Below are positions 37,457 to 56,793 of a stretch of DNA of 64,000 nt, piece by piece. Source of the stretch: a phage. The notes under the pieces were generated by a model. That model worked only from the letters and a program-made list of their open reading frames with translations, did no database searches and was not told the origin of the DNA. A program made the position numbers and the translations under genes. The stretch lies in the NCBI GenBank assembly GCA_011911785.1, contig GCA_011911785.1_4084.1, one strand, 5' to 3'. How positions within the stretch are numbered: the first letter of the stretch is position 1; each line of letters opens with the position of its first letter.

Positions 37457-38074
37457 ATGACTACATCACAAAAGTACTGGTGGATTTTGGGACACCCTGA
37501 ATTTATCAATAAAGACTACGTTGATGCTCGCATTGATGTTGAGCCACACGATGTATGTCCTATCACCAATCGTATTGAAGATTATCCGGTACTGAATACA
37601 AAAACACAGTACTGGATCGAAATGCTAACTCCGTTTTTCGATGAAGACGAAGGGAAGTTCGTTCGTGGACATGAGTACGAGTTGGATTGTGGTGGTGATA
37701 CATATGAAGAAGCAATTGATAATTTATACACCAAGATCCTAGAAAAGTACGGTGATTACACACAAGAAGAAGCGGAAGCTAAGTATGATGCTGTACATCA
37801 GCGTGTAGTGACGAAAAGTGCTTTTCCTTCATCAATGTTCCAACCAGAAGAACTTCGTAACACATGGGAGAACTCAAAATTATCTGAAATTGAACTTGAT
37901 TATATTCCAGGTGATATTGAAAACATTAAAGGTACAATAAAAGCCTTGAAAGAATTCCTCAAAACTTGTACAATAGAAGAACAAGAAGAGGCAAACAAAC
38001 ATTTACAATCCGAGGAATGTAAACTATGGGTGCTTGAGGAATCACTTAGAAAAGGCATAGACTACAACATATGA
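37457..38074 (+). CDS. hypothetical acidic protein
   Basis: 205-aa ORF. Confidence 0.4.
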   Translation: MTTSQKYWWILGHPEFINKDYVDARIDVEPHDVCPITNRIEDYPVLNTKTQYWIEMLTPFFDEDEGKFVRGHEYELDCGGDTYEEAIDNLYTKILEKYGDYTQEEAEAKYDAVHQRVVTKSAFPSSMFQPEELRNTWENSKLSEIELDYIPGDIENIKGTIKALKEFLKTCTIEEQEEANKHLQSEECKLWVLEESLRKGIDYNI

Positions 38075-38439
38075 ACCCGAAATTGCTTAAACTGGTAGAA
38101 GAACTCCGTGAGATGCCGCCGATTGAACAAGTTGGCAATTACAAACGGTATAGAGTAATTGCTCGTGCACTGGATAAGAAAGGTCGAGTACTGGCTACTC
38201 GTACCAACTCTTACACACAGACTCACCCTAAGCAGAAAGGCTTTGCAATTCGTGCGGGTCGCCCTCAAGGGGAATTTTTACACGCTGAAATTTCGTGTCT
38301 TCTTGCTGCTCGTGCTGAAGTACATACTCTTCTTATCGCTCGTGTAAGTAAAGATGGAATTCCAGTTCCAGCAAAACCTTGTGAGATTTGTACATTAGCA
38401 ATTCAGGAGTACGGGGTAAAAGAGATTATCCATACATGA
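38071..38439 (+). CDS. CDA-fold zinc-dependent deaminase (TadA / cytidine deaminase-like)
   Basis: HAEISCLLAA and PCEICTL, the H[AC]E ... PCxxC deaminase signature, in a 122-aa protein. Confidence 0.55.
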   Translation: MNPKLLKLVEELREMPPIEQVGNYKRYRVIARALDKKGRVLATRTNSYTQTHPKQKGFAIRAGRPQGEFLHAEISCLLAARAEVHTLLIARVSKDGIPVPAKPCEICTLAIQEYGVKEIIHT

Positions 38440-39346: not shown

Positions 39347-39372
39347 AAAGCACCCAAGTGGTGCTTTTTGTG
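39347..39372 (+). terminator. rho-independent terminator
   Basis: Hairpin aaagcacc-caagt-ggtgcttt followed by a T-tract. Confidence 0.6.
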
Positions 39373-39503
39373 TTTGTACAGTACTTAATCAATTGCACTT
39401 TTCCTTGATTTAGGTCAAGAGAAAAAGGCCAATATGAGGCTATAATGCTCTTTGTTGAAGTTAAATAAATTCACCCAAACGAATAACATACAAGGAATGT
39501 GAA

Positions 39504-41309
39504 ATGCAAATAGATAAATTATATACGGACGTAACTAACTTCCTCAACCAGAGTAACGCTGATTTAACAAACGAAAATGCAAATAAAGACGCTAAATGTG
39601 TTAATACACATCGTGATTTATTGGCAGGTATTCTTTCTAAACATTATTCCCAAGATGTGATTCCTGATGAATTGATGAAGTGGCATAATGAAGGTTACGG
39701 TCATATTCATGATTTAGACTATTACATTAGCCCATTAACAAACTGTTGTTTAGTTAATTATCCTGATATGCTTGCTAATGGCTTCATGATTGGTTGTGCC
39801 AAGATTGAAGAACCAAAAAGCTTTGGGGTAGCTTGTACAGTACTAACACAGATTGTTCAGGCTGTGGCAAGTTCACAGTACGGTGGTCAGTCGTTGGCTC
39901 ACATTGACACTGGCCTTGCACCATATGTACAAAAGTCATGGGATAAACTTCTAGAAAAACAAAAGAAATACAATCTTAGTACTGAATTCATCGAAGATGA
40001 GTTGCGTAAGGAAGTTTATGACGGTTGTCAAACAATTCTATATCAAACAAACTCAATGATCAGTACTAATGGTCAGGCTGCGTTCATTTCTTTGAGTTTA
40101 GGATTAGGTACATCTAAATTTGAAAAACTAATCACTGAACAATATTTGAAAGTACATGAAAATGGACTAGGTAAAGATAAGATTACTCCAGTATTTCCTA
40201 AAGTAATATTCTTTCTTCAGGATGGAATTAATATGAACAGTACTGATTGTAATTATGACTTAAAACAATTAGCTATGCGTTGTGCAGCTAAACGCATCTA
40301 TCCTGATTTTGTATCAGTACCTTTGAATCAAAAAGTTACTGGAAGCACAACTATTCCTGTTACTCCTATGGGATGCAGAAGTTTCTTAGGGAAATGGGAA
40401 AATACACAAGGAGAAGAAAAATACAATGGTAGATTCAACCTTGGCGTTGTGTCTATCAACTTACCACTAATTGCTCTTGAGAGTGAGTCTGATGGTGATT
40501 TCTTTGATAAGATTGACGAGCACATGAATATTGCTTACAGAGCACAGATGAACCGTGTAGAACGTTTAAAAGGTACAAAGGCAAAACAAAACCCTATACT
40601 TTTCGCTGAAGGTGCGATTGCACGTCTTGATCCTGAAGACACTATTGACCATTTATTTTATAATGGTTATGCTAGTATCAGTATTGGTTATGTTGGGTTA
40701 TCTGAGTGTTCAGAGATCCTCACTGGTTCAATTAGTAAAGAGTTCTGTATGAGTATTTTGAACTACATGAAAGCAAAATGTGATGAATTCAAAAAAGAGA
40801 GTAACATTGCATTTAGTCTTTACGGTACACCAGCAGAATCACTATGTTATAAATTTGCACGTTGTATTGAGGCAAAACATCCTTCAGTACTGAAACGTGA
40901 CTTTATCACTAACTCATTCCATCAACCAGTATGGGTTGAAAGTACACCTTTTGCTAAATGGGATTATGAGGAAAACTTTGCTTATCTAAGCAATGGTGGT
41001 AATATTAGCTATGTCGAAACACCAAATCTAGCTAATAATATACAAGCACTTGAAACATTAATAAATTTTGCTTATACTAAAATTCCATATTTTGGTATTA
41101 ATCAGAAGGTCGATAAGTGTTTTGAATGTGATTTTGAGGGTGAATTTAGTGTAGATAAAAATGGTTTCCATTGTCCGGTATGTGACAACCGCAATGAACG
41201 CACAATGTCGGTTATTCGCAGAGTATCAGGATATCTTAGTGCACCAAATAGTCGCCCGTTCAATAAAGGTAAACAAGCTGAAGTTATTCAACGTATACAA
41301 CACATGTAA
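39504..41309 (+). CDS. nrdD: anaerobic ribonucleoside-triphosphate reductase
   Basis: 601 aa; C-terminal zinc ribbon (CFECDF ... CPVCDN) followed by glycyl-radical motif RRVSGYL; adjacent nrdG. Confidence 0.9.
   Translation: MQIDKLYTDVTNFLNQSNADLTNENANKDAKCVNTHRDLLAGILSKHYSQDVIPDELMKWHNEGYGHIHDLDYYISPLTNCCLVNYPDMLANGFMIGCAKIEEPKSFGVACTVLTQIVQAVASSQYGGQSLAHIDTGLAPYVQKSWDKLLEKQKKYNLSTEFIEDELRKEVYDGCQTILYQTNSMISTNGQAAFISLSLGLGTSKFEKLITEQYLKVHENGLGKDKITPVFPKVIFFLQDGINMNSTDCNYDLKQLAMRCAAKRIYPDFVSVPLNQKVTGSTTIPVTPMGCRSFLGKWENTQGEEKYNGRFNLGVVSINLPLIALESESDGDFFDKIDEHMNIAYRAQMNRVERLKGTKAKQNPILFAEGAIARLDPEDTIDHLFYNGYASISIGYVGLSECSEILTGSISKEFCMSILNYMKAKCDEFKKESNIAFSLYGTPAESLCYKFARCIEAKHPSVLKRDFITNSFHQPVWVESTPFAKWDYEENFAYLSNGGNISYVETPNLANNIQALETLINFAYTKIPYFGINQKVDKCFECDFEGEFSVDKNGFHCPVCDNRNERTMSVIRRVSGYLSAPNSRPFNKGKQAEVIQRIQHM
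40883..40894. repeat. 12-bp palindrome TTCAGTACTGAA
   Basis: Exact 12-mer inside nrdD. Confidence 0.6.
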
Positions 41310-41318
41310 GGAGATATT

Positions 41319-41681
41319 ATGTCAATTCAAGGTAAACAAGTCATGTCTGGTGAGCACCGTGGAACTATCATGCTAATAGAAAATGATATTGCACGTATTA
41401 TTGTATCAAAGACCTTTTCCGAAGATGATGAAGTACTTTTGAGTACTTTTGATGGTGAGGTACTGCGTGATGTGGAAATTCAACACGCACCGAATATTGA
41501 AGGTGGTCAGCACTTGAATGTAAATGTTCTATCTAAAGAACAACTAATTGATGCACAAAATAATCCAGAAAAGTATCCGCAACTTACAATTCGTGTTAGT
41601 GGTTATGCAGTTCGTTTCAATTCACTAACAAAAGAACAACAAGATGATGTAATCAATCGTACTTTTACTAAAGGTCTATGA
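41319..41681 (+). CDS. grcA: autonomous glycyl-radical cofactor (GrcA/YfiD-like)
   Basis: C-terminus [42 protein letters not shown] closely matches my recollection of E. coli GrcA. Confidence 0.85.
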
Positions 41682-42013
41682 TGGACTTAAAACCAATTGT
41701 AGTTAACAAATATAAAGAACCATATGATGTGTATATAGGTCGTGGGTCCAAATGGGGAAATCCATTTACCCACATTAATGACAAACAAACAAAGGCAGAG
41801 TTTATAGTTCCGACACGAGAAGAGTCGATTGAGAAGTTCAGAGAGTATCTTATCCAAAGAATTGAAAATGGTGAGGTTACTATCGAAGAACTACTTGAAT
41901 TGGCTGGGAAGCGTCTTGGGTGCTTTTGTAAGCCAAAATCATGTCATGGTGATGTTCTTGTAGAAATAGTGAGTGCAATATTAGATGAATTACCAGACGA
42001 TAATCAAGGATGA
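41678..42013 (+). CDS. conserved hypothetical protein (DUF4326-like)
   Basis: Motif [10 protein letters not shown] plus C-terminal [11 protein letters not shown]; family assignment is from memory and uncertain. Confidence 0.4.
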
Positions 42014-42464
42014 TTTAGTTAATGGGGAGGGAGTTAGATGCTCCCTTTTTGTTTCAGGGTGTAGCCACGGATGTGAAGAATGCTTCAACGAAAAAGCATG
42101 GGATTATCGCAGTGGTTCAGAATTCAGTACTGAAACAGTTGAAATCATCCTGAATGAACTTAACAAGCCATATGTACAAGGATTATCCCTTTTAGGTGGT
42201 GATCCATTGATGCCAAAGAATATCAGTACTGTTATTGAGTTATGTAAAGTAGTAAAAGAAAAATATCCAAATAAAGATATTTGGTGCTGGAGTGGTTATA
42301 CTTTAGAGGAAATAATAAATAATCATGCCTCCGTAATACTAGAGTACATTGATGTATTAGTTGATGGTAAATTTATTCTTGAAGAAAAGAATTTAGAATT
42401 ACCATTTAGAGGCTCTAATAATCAACGTATTCTTCGTAAAGGAGTAGATTATGCGTTATCTTGA
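41985..42464 (+). CDS. nrdG: anaerobic ribonucleotide reductase activating protein (radical SAM)
   Basis: N-terminus [35 protein letters not shown] matches the NrdG signature. Confidence 0.9.
   Translation: MNYQTIIKDDLVNGEGVRCSLFVSGCSHGCEECFNEKAWDYRSGSEFSTETVEIILNELNKPYVQGLSLLGGDPLMPKNISTVIELCKVVKEKYPNKDIWCWSGYTLEEIINNHASVILEYIDVLVDGKFILEEKNLELPFRGSNNQRILRKGVDYALS
42123..42134. repeat. 12-bp palindrome TTCAGTACTGAA
   Basis: Exact 12-mer inside nrdG, preceded by AA (aattcagtactgaa). Confidence 0.6.
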
Positions 42465-42609
42465 TATTATTTCGGAAAAGATACAGAAACGTGGAAATGA
42501 GTGGGTTGTTACTGACCACACAGGGAAGAAAGTTCTCGGTCGTCACCCAACAAGAAAAGAAGCACTTAAACAATTAAGAGCAGTTGAATTTTCTAAACAC
42601 GGCGGTTAA
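42451..42609 (+). CDS. small hypothetical protein (52 aa)
   Basis: ORF below the track threshold; ATG 42451 overlaps the nrdG 3' end; followed directly by a terminator. Confidence 0.35.
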   Translation: MRYLDIISEKIQKRGNEWVVTDHTGKKVLGRHPTRKEALKQLRAVEFSKHGG

Positions 42610-42616
42610 TATGAAG

Positions 42617-42641
42617 AAGCACCCTTTGGGTGCTTTTTTTA
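42617..42641 (+). terminator. rho-independent terminator
   Basis: Hairpin aagcaccc-ttt-gggtgctt followed by ttttt. Confidence 0.65.
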
Positions 42642-42647
42642 TACTAT

Positions 42648-42655
42648 TATAAATA
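42648..42655 (+). promoter_or_regulatory. T4-type late promoter element TATAAATA
   Basis: Exact tataaata 32 nt upstream of the ATG of the tail-fibre-like gene at 42687. Confidence 0.4.
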
Positions 42656-42686: not shown

Positions 42687-45386
42687 ATGGCAAAGAAAAT
42701 ATATGGTGGCATTGATGTTACACATAATGTAACAGTCAAAGGTAAGAGAAGTGTTCAGAGCATCAATGATAACGTATTTGATGAAAATGGCAATCTCACA
42801 ATAGATGCATATACACAAGATGATATGCTGGAAATGGTTGGTATGTTACCCATTTCTCGTTATGGTACACAAAACTATCTACCTGCTGGTGTCAATGGTA
42901 CAACAGTTGGTTCTTCAGAAAATGCTAGTTCCAGAAATACAAAATTATTTTTGGAAGATGATAACACTTTAGTAATGTTACGTCCGGGTACTAATGGAAG
43001 TTCACAGGGGATTTATTATAGTTATATGACCCAGGCGGTTGGTACAACAAATACAAGTCGTATGGTTAATACTACTCGTGCATATAAACCAAATTATTTT
43101 GGTGCTGGGTATGCAGTTTATTTGTATCCAAGCAGTGATGATATTACTTGTGGTTTGGTGAGAACTGAAAATTCTGATGGTACATATATTGATAGAGTTT
43201 TTGTTTCAGTCAATAATGGTACTATGAATGATACAATGCACACTGGTATTATTCTATCAGACCATACAGCCGTACAACCTTTTGGTGCAATACAATTTGT
43301 TATTCGTGCTGAAGATGGTTCATTATACTTTTTCAGTTTAGATACACCAAGCAATACTCTTAAAATATCCGTTACTAAAGTTACTTTTAGTCCAAGTAAT
43401 AACCCAGGTGGTGGTACTTATAGTACTACTAGAATTACTGGTTGGGCCACAAGAACTTTTTATAATGCAATGGTATATGATGACAATATTGTTCCAACTA
43501 TGAAAATAAATTCAACAAATACCAATGATAATCCATACGTTTTAATTCCAAGTGGTATTATTGGGTTTGGTGTTTATATGACAGATCCAGATTTATATGT
43601 TGCACAGAAATCTGGTACATCCGAATTCAGATTTAGATTATGTGGTGATATGTGGATGACAAATGGACGATATGACACACGCCCACAACACAGTTTTAGT
43701 ATGACTTTTGATGTTGTGACAAAACAATGTAAATTGGATAATATGTTAACGACTACACCAGTTGCTGTTAATGACACGGGTTCAAGTATGAATGTAACGG
43801 GTCAATGCATAACAAAAGATCCATTTTATCTTCACGCGGGTGGTCGTAATATTTTTAGTAATTATTGCTATGTACCATCAACTGGTGATGCATTTTGTTC
43901 ATTCTCACCAAACCTCGCAGAAGCATTGAATTTATCATACGCGAAATATCCACCACAGTCATTGTTTAATTTAATGAATGTTAGAAGTGTATCAGCAACT
44001 AATTTTATTAATGGTGTAGTATCACCAAGATTTGGTTCAGCAGTTGGATCATACCAAGTAGGCGTAGAGTTATTACCAAATAACAGTACTAAACAATATT
44101 CAAGACGTTCTGGTGATGGTCGTTTTTATCCATCCTATGCTGTACATAAAGCTACACCGAACTTCACATTTAAGTCTCTAGACTATGGTACTGTTCCTGG
44201 TTATGAACCAACACCAGACCGAGCGTTTATAACTACACCAGAATCTAGAATTTTTATAAGTTCAATTTCTGGATCAACGGTAACGACTAATGGTGGTGTT
44301 TTGGTGGCTGATAATAGAACATCAACTCCTATTAGTTTTGATTATAAAGGTAATGTACTGAATAATGGTACAATCAGTATGTCTCAAGATATAATGAATG
44401 CTATTCGAAATTCCGAATTTGCTAAAGTTGCTAGTTCATGGAATATATCACCAGAATCAATAAAAACATTATCTGTATTTGTTCCACAACAAACTGATAT
44501 TCCTGTTTTTGGTGTTCTTGCAGCATCTACTACAGCCCGTGGTTTATATGTACGAGTTGTTGAATTGAATGTCAATACAAGAACTGGTGATATTACAACA
44601 TGGTCGTTCAAACGTTTAGTACATGAAAGTGTTCAAGCTGGGGATTACAAAACAGATACCGCATATCATCTTGATAGTGGAAGTATTGGTATTACTATAT
44701 ATGATGCTGGTTCTTTCTACTTCATCGGTGGTGGTATTCCTGGGTTCTTTAATACTGTTGGTAATACAGCTTCACCATTTTTCCGTGCTACAGTAGATAA
44801 AGCAACTGCCCAATTTAATAATTTCCATATAGCGGGTCAGCGTCCGATCTATGCATTAGATGGTCAACCATTCGCTTTACCTAATATTGGGTTTGGTATT
44901 CTTCAAAGTATAGATAATACAAACAAAACAATTTTTAGAACATATGGTACTACATTAGCGGATTATAATGCATGGACTGATAAAGGAAATCCATTTATAT
45001 GTCTTGTTTCCCAAGATGTTGCTCAAGGTTTTATTATATACTTCACCGAAGAGACACCAGTACTGATATCCGGTAAACACTATACATTACCAATATCAAA
45101 TATAGATTTAACAACTGTGAAAGCAAATCCTGCCAATACTACATTTTATGTGTATATTAAATTAGTACAGGGTATTGCAAACTATCATATATCAACAACT
45201 GAATTAGCTGAAACTCATTCAATATTCTGGATTGGTACAGTGAAAACTGATAATTTACAAATAACCGAAATTAATATAGAAAAACGTTCTCGTTTAGACC
45301 TGTTTGGTTCATCATTCAACGCTGCCGGAAGTTCCTTCCCAGTAAGTTCTGGGTTCCCTTCAAGTTCTGGTAATGTGAATTGGTAA
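42687..45386 (+). CDS. putative tail fibre / receptor-binding protein (paralog A)
   Basis: 899 aa, Gly/Ser/Thr/Asn-rich; N-terminal (MLPISRYGTQNYLP) and C-terminal (SSGFPSSSGNVNW) modules shared with 45998..48739. Confidence 0.45.
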   Translation: MAKKIYGGIDVTHNVTVKGKRSVQSINDNVFDENGNLTIDAYTQDDMLEMVGMLPISRYGTQNYLPAGVNGTTVGSSENASSRNTKLFLEDDNTLVMLRPGTNGSSQGIYYSYMTQAVGTTNTSRMVNTTRAYKPNYFGAGYAVYLYPSSDDITCGLVRTENSDGTYIDRVFVSVNNGTMNDTMHTGIILSDHTAVQPFGAIQFVIRAEDGSLYFFSLDTPSNTLKISVTKVTFSPSNNPGGGTYSTTRITGWATRTFYNAMVYDDNIVPTMKINSTNTNDNPYVLIPSGIIGFGVYMTDPDLYVAQKSGTSEFRFRLCGDMWMTNGRYDTRPQHSFSMTFDVVTKQCKLDNMLTTTPVAVNDTGSSMNVTGQCITKDPFYLHAGGRNIFSNYCYVPSTGDAFCSFSPNLAEALNLSYAKYPPQSLFNLMNVRSVSATNFINGVVSPRFGSAVGSYQVGVELLPNNSTKQYSRRSGDGRFYPSYAVHKATPNFTFKSLDYGTVPGYEPTPDRAFITTPESRIFISSISGSTVTTNGGVLVADNRTSTPISFDYKGNVLNNGTISMSQDIMNAIRNSEFAKVASSWNISPESIKTLSVFVPQQTDIPVFGVLAASTTARGLYVRVVELNVNTRTGDITTWSFKRLVHESVQAGDYKTDTAYHLDSGSIGITIYDAGSFYFIGGGIPGFFNTVGNTASPFFRATVDKATAQFNNFHIAGQRPIYALDGQPFALPNIGFGILQSIDNTNKTIFRTYGTTLADYNAWTDKGNPFICLVSQDVAQGFIIYFTEETPVLISGKHYTLPISNIDLTTVKANPANTTFYVYIKLVQGIANYHISTTELAETHSIFWIGTVKTDNLQITEINIEKRSRLDLFGSSFNAAGSSFPVSSGFPSSSGNVNW

Positions 45387-50790: not shown

Positions 50791-53066
50791 ATAATAACAA
50801 ATTTCTTGAACAAACAATTGTGAAGCACTTAGCAGGTTCACAAGCGTATGGAACCAGTACACCTGAAAGTGATACGGATTATCGTGGTATTTTTCTTGCT
50901 AACAAAGAATTTATCCTTACACCTTTTTATAATGTCAAGGAAGTTTCTGATAAAAAAGAAGAAGATACTAAATTCTATGAACTAAATCAGTACTTAAGAC
51001 TATACACAGAGGCTAACCCAAATATCCTTGAATCACTATGGGTTGATCCTGAACACATCGTAGAAAGTACTGAAATCTATGATTATCTACGTACATTCAA
51101 TCAACAATTACTTAGTTCTAAGATTGCATTCTCTTATACCGGTTATGCATATAATCAGGTTAAACGTATGTCCAATCACCACGGGTGGATGGATAAAGAG
51201 CGTATTGCTGAAAAACGTCTAAATGAAATCTTAGAAGATTTTCCAGTAGATGAAACTTTAGCATGGATGTATGAAAACTTCCCACACTATTTGGTAGAAC
51301 GTTTAGATACTTCTAAACTACATCCATTTAATGCTAAGAAAATAGATTTTGAAAAATACATGCGTGATACTTCATTGCAGTTAGTTTCGACTCATCCGTT
51401 GAAACAGTATCATTTTGTACGTTTAGTACATAATTACAGTACTGATAAAGTACTAGACCGTGATTTCAACTTATTGGATTATAACAATGGGTACGAATTA
51501 ATTCATTACGGTGAAAATATCTTTGGTGTTATTATCAATCCTAATGAAAGTACAATTAACGCTGATGGTTCTTTACGTTATTTCAACAAAGAACGCAGTA
51601 CTGAAGAATTGAAAGTACGACCTGAACTCATTGTCAAATTCAATGAAAAAGAATACAGTGAGAACAGTGAGAACCGTAAAAGTTATCACAAATGGAAAGA
51701 GAATCGTAATGCTAAACGTGCAATTCTTGAATCCAAACACGGCTATGACTGTTATAGTTTTGATACTGAATTCTTAACTAAAGATGGTTGGAAATTGTTT
51801 GATGATATCACTGAAAATGATCTATTAGCAACATTTGATAAAAATCACAAAATAGAATATCAGAAATATACTGAACGTTTTGATAATTTATATAATGGCA
51901 ACCTATATCACTTCACTGGTTATCACCAAGATACTTTAGTGACTGCTAACCATCGAATGTATGTTAAGGATTATGCACGTAATCAGAAAAAAGATATGTC
52001 TGATTGGAAATTTGTGGAAGCTGCACAATTAAAAGAAACATATAAAATTTTGAATACATTATCCCCAATAACAAACGAATACCAAGATAAAAAAAGTCCA
52101 TTTGACTACATGGATATCAAAGTTTATCTTCAACTTATGGGATGGTTTATTTCAGATGGTAGTATAAGTTTCAGAGATGGTAAAGTAAAATCATTATATA
52201 TTTCCCAATCAAAAGCAAGTCCAGGTATGCGTTGTGCTTTAACAAAATACAAACAATCTGGTCAATTGGTTTTCCATGAATACATTGTAGAAAAGAAAGA
52301 TTATCAAGCGAATGATGAATCAAGATTTACATTCCCACGTGAAGTGGCTGAAGCATTATATAATGATTGTGGACATGGTTCATATAATAAACGAATTCCA
52401 AATTGGGTATTTGATTTAACAAAACGCAAAATGGATTTTCTACTGAAAGGTTTGTTACAAGGTGATGGTACAAAACGCAATTTAGTTAATGATAATGATA
52501 CATATGTATATTATACTGCGAATTCATTATTAGCAGATGATGTTCAAAAACTAGCATTACTGTGCGGGTATGAAACATCAAAATGGGGGCCGTACACAAA
52601 CGAGACTAATTTTGGACGTGTTGATATGTATCAAATTCATATCAACATGAAACCGAAATCCGAAAAAATGAACATGAAACAAAATCTTGAAAAAATTCCA
52701 GTTACTAATTACAGAACTGTTTGTTTTTCTGTTCCCAACGGCACACTCGTTACTCGTAGAAATGGTAAAATAGCATTACATGGAAACTGCAAACATGCTA
52801 TGCATACGATCAGACTTTTGAATACAGCCGAAGAAGCATTACAAAGCGGTATTATCCTCGTGAAACGTCCTGATGCTGATATGCTAATGGATATTCGCAA
52901 CGGTAAATGGAAATATGAAGAAGTCATGGATTATTTCAATGAAAAGGTTGACTATATTCGTAATGTAGTGTATCCTAAGTCAGTACTACCAAAGAAACCA
53001 GATATTGCATTAGCAGCGAAAGTACTTTTAGATATTCGTGAAATGCAATGGTATAGTTCAAAATAA
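50787..53066 (+). CDS. Pol-beta-superfamily nucleotidyltransferase-domain protein interrupted by a putative intein
   Basis: N-terminal NTase signature GS-x10-DTD (HLAGSQAYGTSTPESDTDYRG); central ~346-aa insertion with intein-like blocks. Confidence 0.55.
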   Translation: MNNNKFLEQTIVKHLAGSQAYGTSTPESDTDYRGIFLANKEFILTPFYNVKEVSDKKEEDTKFYELNQYLRLYTEANPNILESLWVDPEHIVESTEIYDYLRTFNQQLLSSKIAFSYTGYAYNQVKRMSNHHGWMDKERIAEKRLNEILEDFPVDETLAWMYENFPHYLVERLDTSKLHPFNAKKIDFEKYMRDTSLQLVSTHPLKQYHFVRLVHNYSTDKVLDRDFNLLDYNNGYELIHYGENIFGVIINPNESTINADGSLRYFNKERSTEELKVRPELIVKFNEKEYSENSENRKSYHKWKENRNAKRAILESKHGYDCYSFDTEFLTKDGWKLFDDITENDLLATFDKNHKIEYQKYTERFDNLYNGNLYHFTGYHQDTLVTANHRMYVKDYARNQKKDMSDWKFVEAAQLKETYKILNTLSPITNEYQDKKSPFDYMDIKVYLQLMGWFISDGSISFRDGKVKSLYISQSKASPGMRCALTKYKQSGQLVFHEYIVEKKDYQANDESRFTFPREVAEALYNDCGHGSYNKRIPNWVFDLTKRKMDFLLKGLLQGDGTKRNLVNDNDTYVYYTANSLLADDVQKLALLCGYETSKWGPYTNETNFGRVDMYQIHINMKPKSEKMNMKQNLEKIPVTNYRTVCFSVPNGTLVTRRNGKIALHGNCKHAMHTIRLLNTAEEALQSGIILVKRPDADMLMDIRNGKWKYEEVMDYFNEKVDYIRNVVYPKSVLPKKPDIALAAKVLLDIREMQWYSSK
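51750..52787 (+). mobile_element. putative intein with LAGLIDADG-type homing endonuclease domain
   Basis: Block A CYSFDTEFLT, block B TANH, two LAGLIDADG-like motifs (LMGWFISDGSIS, LLKGLLQGDGTK), C-terminal NGKIALHGN followed by Cys; in frame with the host ORF. Confidence 0.5.
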
Positions 53067-56376: not shown

Positions 56377-56793
56377 ATGAGTAACGCAACGAATATTAAA
56401 AATTCATCTGATTTAACCAAAGAATTGTTTAAAAAGTTTTTTGAGTATCAAATCAATGAAGAGCACGGAATTAAACAGAATTACATAAGTACAATAAAAA
56501 CCAATAATATCCGTACTGAAATCTATGATAGTGTAATCGAATTTATTAATGCTTTGAGTACTGAAAGACCTATAGTAGTTTTGTTTTTTAAACGAGATTA
56601 TCCAGTACAAGTCAACAGGAATGTTCATTTCATTACAGAAAATGATTTAAGTACTTACACAACGAGTTCTATTAGGAATTGTATACTGATAGTATGTGAT
56701 GACTCCGAGTATTTTAGTAAAGTTGTATGGGATAGAAGACGTAATTCAGTAATAAGAGATATGAATCCCGAATTTACATTTCTGATCAAATAA
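56377..56793 (+). CDS. hypothetical protein
   Basis: 138-aa ORF. Confidence 0.4.
   Translation: MSNATNIKNSSDLTKELFKKFFEYQINEEHGIKQNYISTIKTNNIRTEIYDSVIEFINALSTERPIVVLFFKRDYPVQVNRNVHFITENDLSTYTTSSIRNCILIVCDDSEYFSKVVWDRRRNSVIRDMNPEFTFLIK

Follow-up and report, generated by a model that had tools for sequence, protein, structure and literature searches.

A phage operon for anaerobic ribonucleotide reduction with a candidate pyruvate formate-lyase spare part and a predicted FNR-type promoter

Why should a phage keep a gene for a stand-alone glycyl-radical cofactor between the genes for its anaerobic ribonucleotide reductase and for the activase of that reductase, when the reductase already ends in a radical motif of its own? 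This question is raised by the nrdD-grcA-DUF4326-nrdG cluster at positions 39504-42464 of a 64,000-nt stretch of phage DNA (contig GCA_011911785.1_4084.1 of the NCBI GenBank assembly GCA_011911785.1), which is called the window below. Over its full length the cluster shares 99.5% identity with Escherichia phage A4 (ON286972.1), a 355,528-bp jumbo phage of the genus Asteriusvirus isolated on Escherichia coli LF82, and the name A4 is used below for the genes of the window. The answer that we regard as fairly probable is that the region is a single transcription unit, an anaerobic module for the supply of deoxyribonucleoside triphosphates (dNTPs), which the host regulator FNR would switch on, in which NrdG would activate NrdD, and in which GrcA would repair the pyruvate formate-lyase (PFL) of the host, PflB, to sustain the production of formate.

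The unit comprises five genes, nrdD, grcA, the DUF4326 gene, nrdG and a small open reading frame (ORF), orf52, which lie between two terminator hairpins and are joined, in order, by a 9-nt gap and by overlaps of 4, 29 and 14 nt. The grcA gene, which begins 9 nt past the nrdD stop, has a GGAG ribosome-binding site ahead of it, and its own stop overlaps the start of the DUF4326 gene as ATGA. The upstream hairpin, seen in a terminator scan and in the sequence itself, is conserved in an alignment with the related phages PBECO4, K64-1 and Munch, and equivalent hairpins occur on both flanks of the unit in these three phages and in Serratia phage BF, with a hairpin and a T-run at the downstream end; moreover, terminators are annotated on either side of the unit in the Munch record. 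An original prediction, made from the letters of the window alone, had described the GrcA-type ORF right after nrdD, the activase gene two genes on, and a gene between them with an RGSKWGNPF motif, a cysteine/CHG motif and a 29-nt overlap with nrdG (41985-42013). The ORF list reproduces these coordinates and motifs exactly, and the co-expression proposed for the cluster is supported by the tight packing of the genes, the two flanking hairpins and a single conserved promoter-like element.

This element consists of an FNR-type box followed by a -10 hexamer (Table 1). The FNR consensus is TTGATnnnnATCAA, and at class II promoters activation comes from a box centred at about -41.5 (PMC3688515), and the host focA-pflB, yfiD (grcA) and nrdD are all FNR-activated, mostly from sites near -41.5 (PMC3688515, PMC2892513). 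In A4 the box is centred at -41.5 when the predicted start at 39453, 7 nt past TATAAT, is taken as reference, and its first base is T and not G, which makes it a box of the FNR type rather than of the CRP type. In the 64-kb window there is a single composite of a box and a TATAAT spaced by 20-24 nt, where 0.02 occurrences would be expected.

The same composite recurs among the relatives. In an alignment of the sequences upstream of nrdD from five jumbo-phage genera, where the mean column identity is 55%, the half-sites (TTGAT...TCAA) are invariant in A4, PBECO4, K64-1, Munch and BF, and the TATAAT hexamer is kept in the first four of these phages, its counterpart in BF being TATTAT. Allowing for TATWAT, the composite was found nine times among the 178 loci that were fetched, always upstream of a jumbo-phage nrdD and never in a non-jumbo locus, and it has exactly one match in the entire PBECO4 genome. 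All eight RaK2-like phages checked carry the box, with 0-1 mismatch and 90-103 nt before the ATG of nrdD; in fHe-Yen9-04 the box is perfect and the -10 hexamer is weak. Box and hexamer together predict anaerobic induction by the FNR of the host, and we found no report of an FNR-dependent promoter of a phage nrdD in the searchable literature.

A generic sigma-70 scan of the region was uninformative: it gave 10 sites where 17.6 were expected, and the FNR-type promoter, which has no -35 element, escaped it for that reason. No FNR-type box was found upstream of nrdD in Aeromonas phage 65, and a search upstream of grcA in other phage lineages returned one FNR site in 38 kb, below the background rate. 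The window also holds an exact palindrome of the FNR consensus, TTGATATGTATCAA, at 52621-52634, which was set aside as a probable product of chance, having no -10 hexamer and lying apparently in coding sequence.

Table 1. Features of the transcription unit and of its borders, in window coordinates
Feature	Position	Strand	Description
Intrinsic-terminator-like hairpin	39347..39367	+	AAAGCACCC-AAGTG-GTGCTTT, T-rich tail; closes the preceding unit
FNR-type box (predicted)	39405..39418	+	TTGATTTAGGTCAA, TTGAT-N4-GTCAA, 9/10 consensus positions
-10 hexamer (predicted)	39441..39446	+	TATAAT, separated from the FNR box by 22 nt; no match to a -35 element, as in class II activator promoters
nrdD	39504-41309	+	601 aa, T4-like class III (anaerobic) ribonucleoside-triphosphate reductase, radical glycine G576
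grcA	41319-41681	+	120 aa, autonomous glycyl-radical cofactor, phage Y06I/vs.6 lineage, G95 in RVSGYAV
DUF4326 gene	41678-42013	+	111 aa, PF14216 88.3 bits (cutoff 25), homologue of T4-type NrdA.1
nrdG	41985-42464	+	159 aa, radical-SAM activase of NrdD, CxxxCxxC at C26, C30, C33
orf52	42451-42609	+	52 aa, PHROG 3684 (E 1.4e-17), last gene of the unit
Intrinsic terminator	42617..42635	+	AAGCACCC-TTT-GGGTGCTT, then TTTTT; end of the unit

The enzyme that GrcA would serve can be read from its C-terminal half. The protein matches PF01228 with 64.2 bits over residues 61-101 and belongs to PHROG 1209 (E 3.6e-51), and it aligns with residues 25-127 of E. coli GrcA (PDB 6OWR) and with residues 669-758 of PflB (1H16). 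The alignment that the original prediction had proposed as a check on the radical glycine places G95 in register with G102 of E. coli GrcA and with G734 of PflB, in a column without variation. The last 62 residues are 79% identical to E. coli PflB and likewise to E. coli GrcA, and 47 columns are invariant across the phage and E. coli GrcA proteins, a constraint that fits a part that must slot into the PflB of the host. The best local alignment of GrcA with the NrdD of its own phage yields 14/34 identities around RVSGY (score 42), and GrcA contains no cysteine, as opposed to the four of the CxxC...CxxC of NrdD, so it is unable to form the zinc ribbon of that enzyme. Because of the high identity to PflB, the missing cysteines and the scant similarity to NrdD, homology supports GrcA as a spare part of PflB and not of NrdD, its C-terminal half being modelled on the radical domain of the former. 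The T4 homologue, Y06I, is activated by the PFL activating enzyme and restores PFL cleaved by oxygen (Wagner 2001, as described in PMC8683613); such activation and rescue are known for E. coli YfiD and T4 Y06I only. Among glycyl-radical enzymes, spare parts are known for the formate lyases alone (2026 review, PMC13450708).

The reductase and its activase are themselves well defined. NrdD scores 543.6 bits with PF13597, 530.6 with TIGR02487 (cutoff 326.35) and 767.9 with PRK09263 (cutoff 657), and it is closest to the NrdD of T4 (PDB 1H78; 561.6 bits, E 1.6e-167). As the match to PRK09263 begins only at profile position 97, NrdD lacks the ATP cone, like the T4 enzyme. Its C-terminus shows a four-cysteine zinc ribbon, CFEC...CPVC, and then RRVSGYLS, so that the radical motif of its own that had been attributed to NrdD is indeed there. 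NrdG scores 200.3 bits with TIGR02491 (cutoff 126.1) and 177 bits with PF13353, and its cluster motif reads CSHGCEEC. The thiyl loop of NrdD, TPMGCRSF, aligns with an identical loop in T4, and a Met-x-Cys loop of this kind was reportedly assigned by Wei et al. 2014 to the formate-type class III reductases, in distinction to the Cys/Glu set of the thioredoxin-dependent types. NrdD would be a reductase of this formate type, with its use of the reductant a prediction. The class III reductases of E. coli and T4 draw their electrons from formate, which in fermentation is produced by PFL (PMC4390871). As an observation on a neighbouring record, the annotated NrdD of PBECO4 (622 aa) begins within the conserved FNR-box/TATAAT promoter (L002 3094-3197; KC295538.1 about 56726-56789); the deposited start is probably too far upstream, since homology to the window NrdD starts 21 codons further in.

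The account that we favour would thus run as follows. Under anoxia, the [4Fe-4S]-FNR of the host would bind the box and recruit the host RNA polymerase, so that the whole module would be made only at low oxygen. NrdG would put the radical on G576 of NrdD, and GrcA would get its G95 radical from the host activase PflA, as T4 Y06I does, and would then replace the radical domain of those PflB molecules that transient oxygen had cleaved at G734, which would keep up the flow of pyruvate to acetyl-CoA and formate. Given that class III reductases of the E. coli/T4 type are reduced by formate, the repair of PflB would also secure the electron donor of the neighbouring NrdD. A repair part for PflB inside an FNR-switched nrdDG operon would keep formate, acetyl-CoA and adenosine triphosphate available through fluctuations of oxygen, in which NrdD and PflB are both at risk, and this supply of formate offers a plausible rationale for the position of grcA.

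The distribution of the gene allows this rationale to be judged. Of 50,697 phage records, 1,585 (about 3%) contain a homologue of GrcA, and most of them are from Enterobacterales and Aeromonas phages of the T4-like, T5-like and related kinds. In T4-type phages the gene, vs.6, is flanked by vs.7 and vs.5, in the vicinity of regB and e and far from the nrd genes, and in the T5-like Eps7 grcA is also away from them. The order nrdD-grcA-DUF4326-nrdG is that of A4, ph0011 and UE-S1 (Asteriusvirus) and of K64-1, RaK2 and Muenster (Alcyoneusvirus), and the Munch-like Salmonella phages have nrdD-grcA-nrdG. In Serratia phage BF (Eneladusvirus), and also in its Erwinia and Yersinia relatives, nrdD is followed by three ORFs, grcA, a 148-aa ORF and nrdG, and the BF ORFs in the slot between nrdD and nrdG have no Pfam match. 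PBECO4 and about 40 similar Asteriusvirus records show nrdD-DUF4326-nrdG, and Aeromonas phage 65, which is T4-related, has nrdB-nrdD-nrdG-grcA-nrdC. The comparison of relatives that had been suggested for this locus therefore shows conserved synteny of grcA in several related genera. Among phages at large, a grcA linked to nrdDG is the exception, confined to the RaK2-like jumbo phages and Aeromonas phage 65, but an exception that exists in two gene orders in unrelated groups. Our searches of the literature found no report on this synteny of GrcA and nrdDG in jumbo phages, and the RaK2 genome paper lists only NrdD and NrdG.

Several observations weigh against the proposed account. As regards the promoter, the A4 box has one mismatch to the consensus, in GTCAA, and FNR-like 14-mers with up to one mismatch show no enrichment in the window (9 against 9.8 expected); the FNR site, the start site and the enzyme that activates GrcA are predictions. 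As regards the protein, TIGR04365 is the top NCBIfam match of GrcA and gives 127.8 bits, under the equivalog cutoff of 170. The GrcA proteins of RB32 (vs.6, 153.3), Eps7 (117.8) and K64-1 (135.8) also stay below this cutoff and E. coli GrcA reaches 233.9; the cutoff reflects the bacterial N-terminal half and shuts out the phage lineage as a whole, including the experimentally validated Y06I of T4. As regards the linkage, nrdD or nrdG lies within 10 kb of GrcA in only 4/80 IMG/VR loci, namely RaK2, BF, fHe-Yen9-04 and a 235,229-bp contig that corresponds to Aeromonas phage 65, and neither the T4-like vs.6 nor the T5-like grcA is linked to nrdD or nrdG. Genes unrelated to grcA, namely DUF4326 and the BF ORFs, are also found in the slot between nrdD and nrdG, which makes position alone weak evidence of a functional tie. 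Finally, PBECO4 has NrdD, DUF4326 and NrdG proteins 89%, 92% and 80% identical to those of the window, and a tblastn search of its whole 348,113-bp genome with seven GrcA queries found no grcA (best E = 0.74). The existence of a phage of the same genus, with the same FNR box, NrdD and NrdG and without grcA, implies that grcA is dispensable for the module. Since the outgroup genera carry the gene, it was by parsimony lost in the PBECO4 lineage. It is against the formate-supply step that the variable content of the slot, the PBECO4 lineage and the 76/80 unlinked loci weigh.

These same facts favour the foremost alternative, in which the adjacency is of historical origin only: a mobile grcA would have landed in a permissive nrdD-nrdG slot and would repair PflB with no tie to ribonucleotide reduction or formate. 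The slot does vary, as it may hold grcA and DUF4326, grcA alone, DUF4326 alone, or grcA together with four unrelated ORFs, and DUF4326 is a tenant of the same slot that shows no general tie to reductases (1/80 loci). However, the linkage arose in two gene orders in unrelated groups, once in RaK2-like jumbo phages and once in Aeromonas phage 65, which is T4-related, and at least four jumbo-phage genera have retained it even though the identity between their GrcA proteins is no higher than 67-75%. Moreover, the operon places grcA behind the only FNR-type promoter that was found, which matches the regulation of the host yfiD, pflB and nrdD. We therefore consider a purely historical adjacency unlikely, although it is the alternative that deserves most weight. 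A related rival holds that the position gives grcA an anaerobic timing and nothing more, or gives it nothing at all.

The original prediction had called the C-terminus of the phage protein very close to that of bacterial GrcA and had proposed an alignment to judge how recent its acquisition was. The closeness holds for the C-terminal half, and a recent capture of the host gene is rejected on three grounds: the DNA of E. coli grcA matches the phage gene over only 176 nt, with 71.6% identity; the G+C content at third codon positions (GC3) is 0.19 in phage grcA versus 0.43 in E. coli grcA, with 0.25-0.28 in the neighbouring phage genes; and the N-terminal 58 residues are of the phage type, with 46% identity to the T4-type vs.6 versus 37% to E. 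coli GrcA. The A4 gene thus represents an old phage lineage. A different picture was noticed in a T4-like phage, RB32, where 60/61 of the C-terminal residues of vs.6 are as in E. coli GrcA and the N-terminal half is phage-type (L004 4007-4369 versus L008 402-785), which suggests a comparatively recent exchange of the T4-like vs.6 with the host gene.

The remaining alternatives concern the radical itself. One is a self-contained kit for radical repair, in which the NrdG of the phage, and not the PflA of the host, would radicalise both GrcA and NrdD. It is prompted by the identical RVSGY loop that GrcA and NrdD carry in the jumbo phages, where the PDB chain of T4 NrdD has RTCAY, and we hold it to be quite improbable. 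If it were true, one FNR-switched operon would reduce nucleotides and, with no need of the host activase, re-arm PflB or even NrdD that had been cleaved, and the kit would be the first case either of a cross-specific glycyl-radical activase or of a spare part outside PFL.

The second of these alternatives is that GrcA is a spare radical domain for NrdD, that is, that it is radicalised by NrdG, docks on NrdD cleaved at G576 and restores nucleotide reduction. The original prediction had named both oxygen-damaged NrdD and host PflB as possible clients, and only the PflB half of this proposal, with homology and the precedent of Y06I behind it, is sustained. The position of grcA, between nrdD and nrdG or right after nrdG in the two gene orders, would suit a spare part for NrdD, and so would the RVSGY shared by GrcA and NrdD in the jumbo phages, at a place where the PDB chain of T4 NrdD has RRTCAY; spare parts of glycyl-radical enzymes other than PFL are so far without a test. 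Against it, the resemblance to the NrdD radical domain does not extend beyond RVSGY, all four zinc-ribbon cysteines are missing from GrcA, and its likeness to PflB, together with the invariant columns, is what fitting into the host enzyme would produce. Moreover, RVSGY is present in every jumbo-phage NrdD, including that of PBECO4, whose genome has no GrcA. This also disposes of the idea that the glycine motif of NrdD co-varies with the presence of grcA, and a spare part for NrdD appears very improbable. Least credible of all is an anti-host decoy that would soak up PflA, S-adenosylmethionine or flavodoxin, or cap PflB, and so divert radical capacity or carbon flux to the phage, since the T4 homologue restores PFL activity instead of inhibiting it and GrcA conserves its radical glycine and all contact motifs of the PFL type, for which a simple decoy would have no use.

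The other two genes of the unit are treated as accessory passengers, carried in a slot whose content differs from one relative to the next. The DUF4326 family has homologues in 2,179 phage records, and in 44 of the homologues, aligned with the protein of the window, R22, N28, C82, C84, C89, H90, G91 and D92 are invariant, within GNP and C.C....CHGD motifs. A confident AlphaFold2 model built from these 44 homologues reached a predicted local distance difference test (pLDDT) of 91.4 and a predicted template modelling score (pTM) of 0.84. The gene is 43% identical to NrdA.1 of RB18 (locus L010 5004-5291), which in T4-type phages lies directly upstream of the class Ia nrdA and overlaps it, and this homology explains PHROG labels such as "NrdA-like". 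A general link between DUF4326 and ribonucleotide reductases was nevertheless rejected as a rule: at the sensitivity of tblastn, a reductase gene was found within 6 kb in 1/80 diverse IMG/VR loci of the family, a PBECO4-like one, so the association is lineage-specific. DUF4326 has been predicted to take part in systems linked to nicotinamide adenine dinucleotide (NAD) and ADP-ribose, with a rhodanese-phosphatase-like domain (PMC9503650, PMC7824862). As for orf52, a product 75% identical is encoded at the same position in K64-1 and RaK2, and it is absent at the corresponding position in PBECO4, Munch and BF, the last of which has an unrelated 59-aa ORF there.

On both sides of the unit the window offers further details. 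About 1 kb upstream, at 38071-38439, there is a 122-aa gene of the deoxycytidine monophosphate (dCMP)/cytidine deaminase family (PF00383, 30 bits), which has a conserved counterpart at the corresponding place in K64-1, and in BF the nrd cluster is directly preceded by a gene for dCMP deaminase; the unit therefore lies in a neighbourhood of nucleotide metabolism. Downstream, a T4-type late-promoter motif, TATAAATA, occurs at 42648-42655, 13 nt past the terminator of the operon and about 30 nt before an 899-aa gene (42687-45386). Its ATAAATA core also follows the terminator in PBECO4, Munch and BF, and K64-1 has diverged there. Given this motif past the terminator, the fibre-like genes downstream may be late genes in the fashion of T4.

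The gene content of the cluster is not new. The A4 record names its four genes as anaerobic ribonucleoside-triphosphate reductase, "pyruvate formate-lyase", DUF4326 domain-containing protein and "anaerobic NTP reductase", and related records call the second one "autonomous glycyl radical cofactor" (Muenster) or "glycyl radical cofactor" (Munch), so that the cluster was already deposited and annotated; a GrcA of phage origin has been on record since T4 Y06I in 2001, as the original prediction had noted, and is present in T4-type phages as vs.6/Y06I. What the present analysis adds is a map of the synteny across relatives, including the sister lineage without grcA, a second and differently ordered linkage in Aeromonas phage 65, the case against a recent host capture of grcA, and a conserved, predicted FNR-type promoter ahead of the operon. 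The element is of a known kind, and its predicted control by FNR is a modest new regulatory detail. A spare part of PFL linked to a formate-consuming class III reductase in RaK2-like jumbo phages, and in Aeromonas phage 65 with the genes in another order, would agree with the notion of phages that safeguard the formate source of the host for the synthesis of their own dNTPs. The predicted promoter is of a textbook-like class II type and is conserved across at least four genera; if the prediction is true, the operon of a lytic phage would be wired to the oxygen sensor of its host. The PBECO4 lineage, with the same operon minus grcA, provides a natural control for a comparison of phenotypes.

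Among known systems, the closest counterpart of A4 GrcA is T4 Y06I (vs.6), which shares its length of 120 aa, its two-part layout and its membership of PHROG 1209, with a phage-type N-terminal half (KAxQIL.GEH.GTI) 46% identical and a PFL-type C-terminal half 80% identical. The two differ in location, since vs.6 is found in the tk-vs-regB-e region and A4 grcA inside the nrdD-nrdG operon, and A4 GrcA has a K and not a P in SLTKEQQ, like PflB. E. coli GrcA (YfiD, 6OWR) is also a stand-alone glycyl-radical domain with a C-terminal half similar to that of the A4 protein, and its gene is activated by FNR from a site at -40.5 (PMC3688515), in parallel with the predicted FNR box of A4; however, the N-terminal halves are far less alike, the GC3 values differ widely and the host gene is monocistronic. 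The nrdDG genes of E. coli and Salmonella are co-transcribed and activated anaerobically by FNR (PMC2892513, PMC3688515), but their NrdD carries an N-terminal ATP cone and their operon includes neither grcA nor DUF4326, and it is for A4 that the promoter is a prediction. Aeromonas phage 65, which does not belong to the RaK2-like jumbo phages, likewise has a GrcA homologue of 120 aa packed tightly with nrdD and nrdG, 1 nt after the nrdG stop (L088 7562-10514), although grcA comes last of the three genes and both DUF4326 and the FNR-type box are missing. Finally, the NrdA.1 of T4-type phages stands beside a class Ia nrdA, whereas its DUF4326 homologue in A4 is found inside a class III operon.

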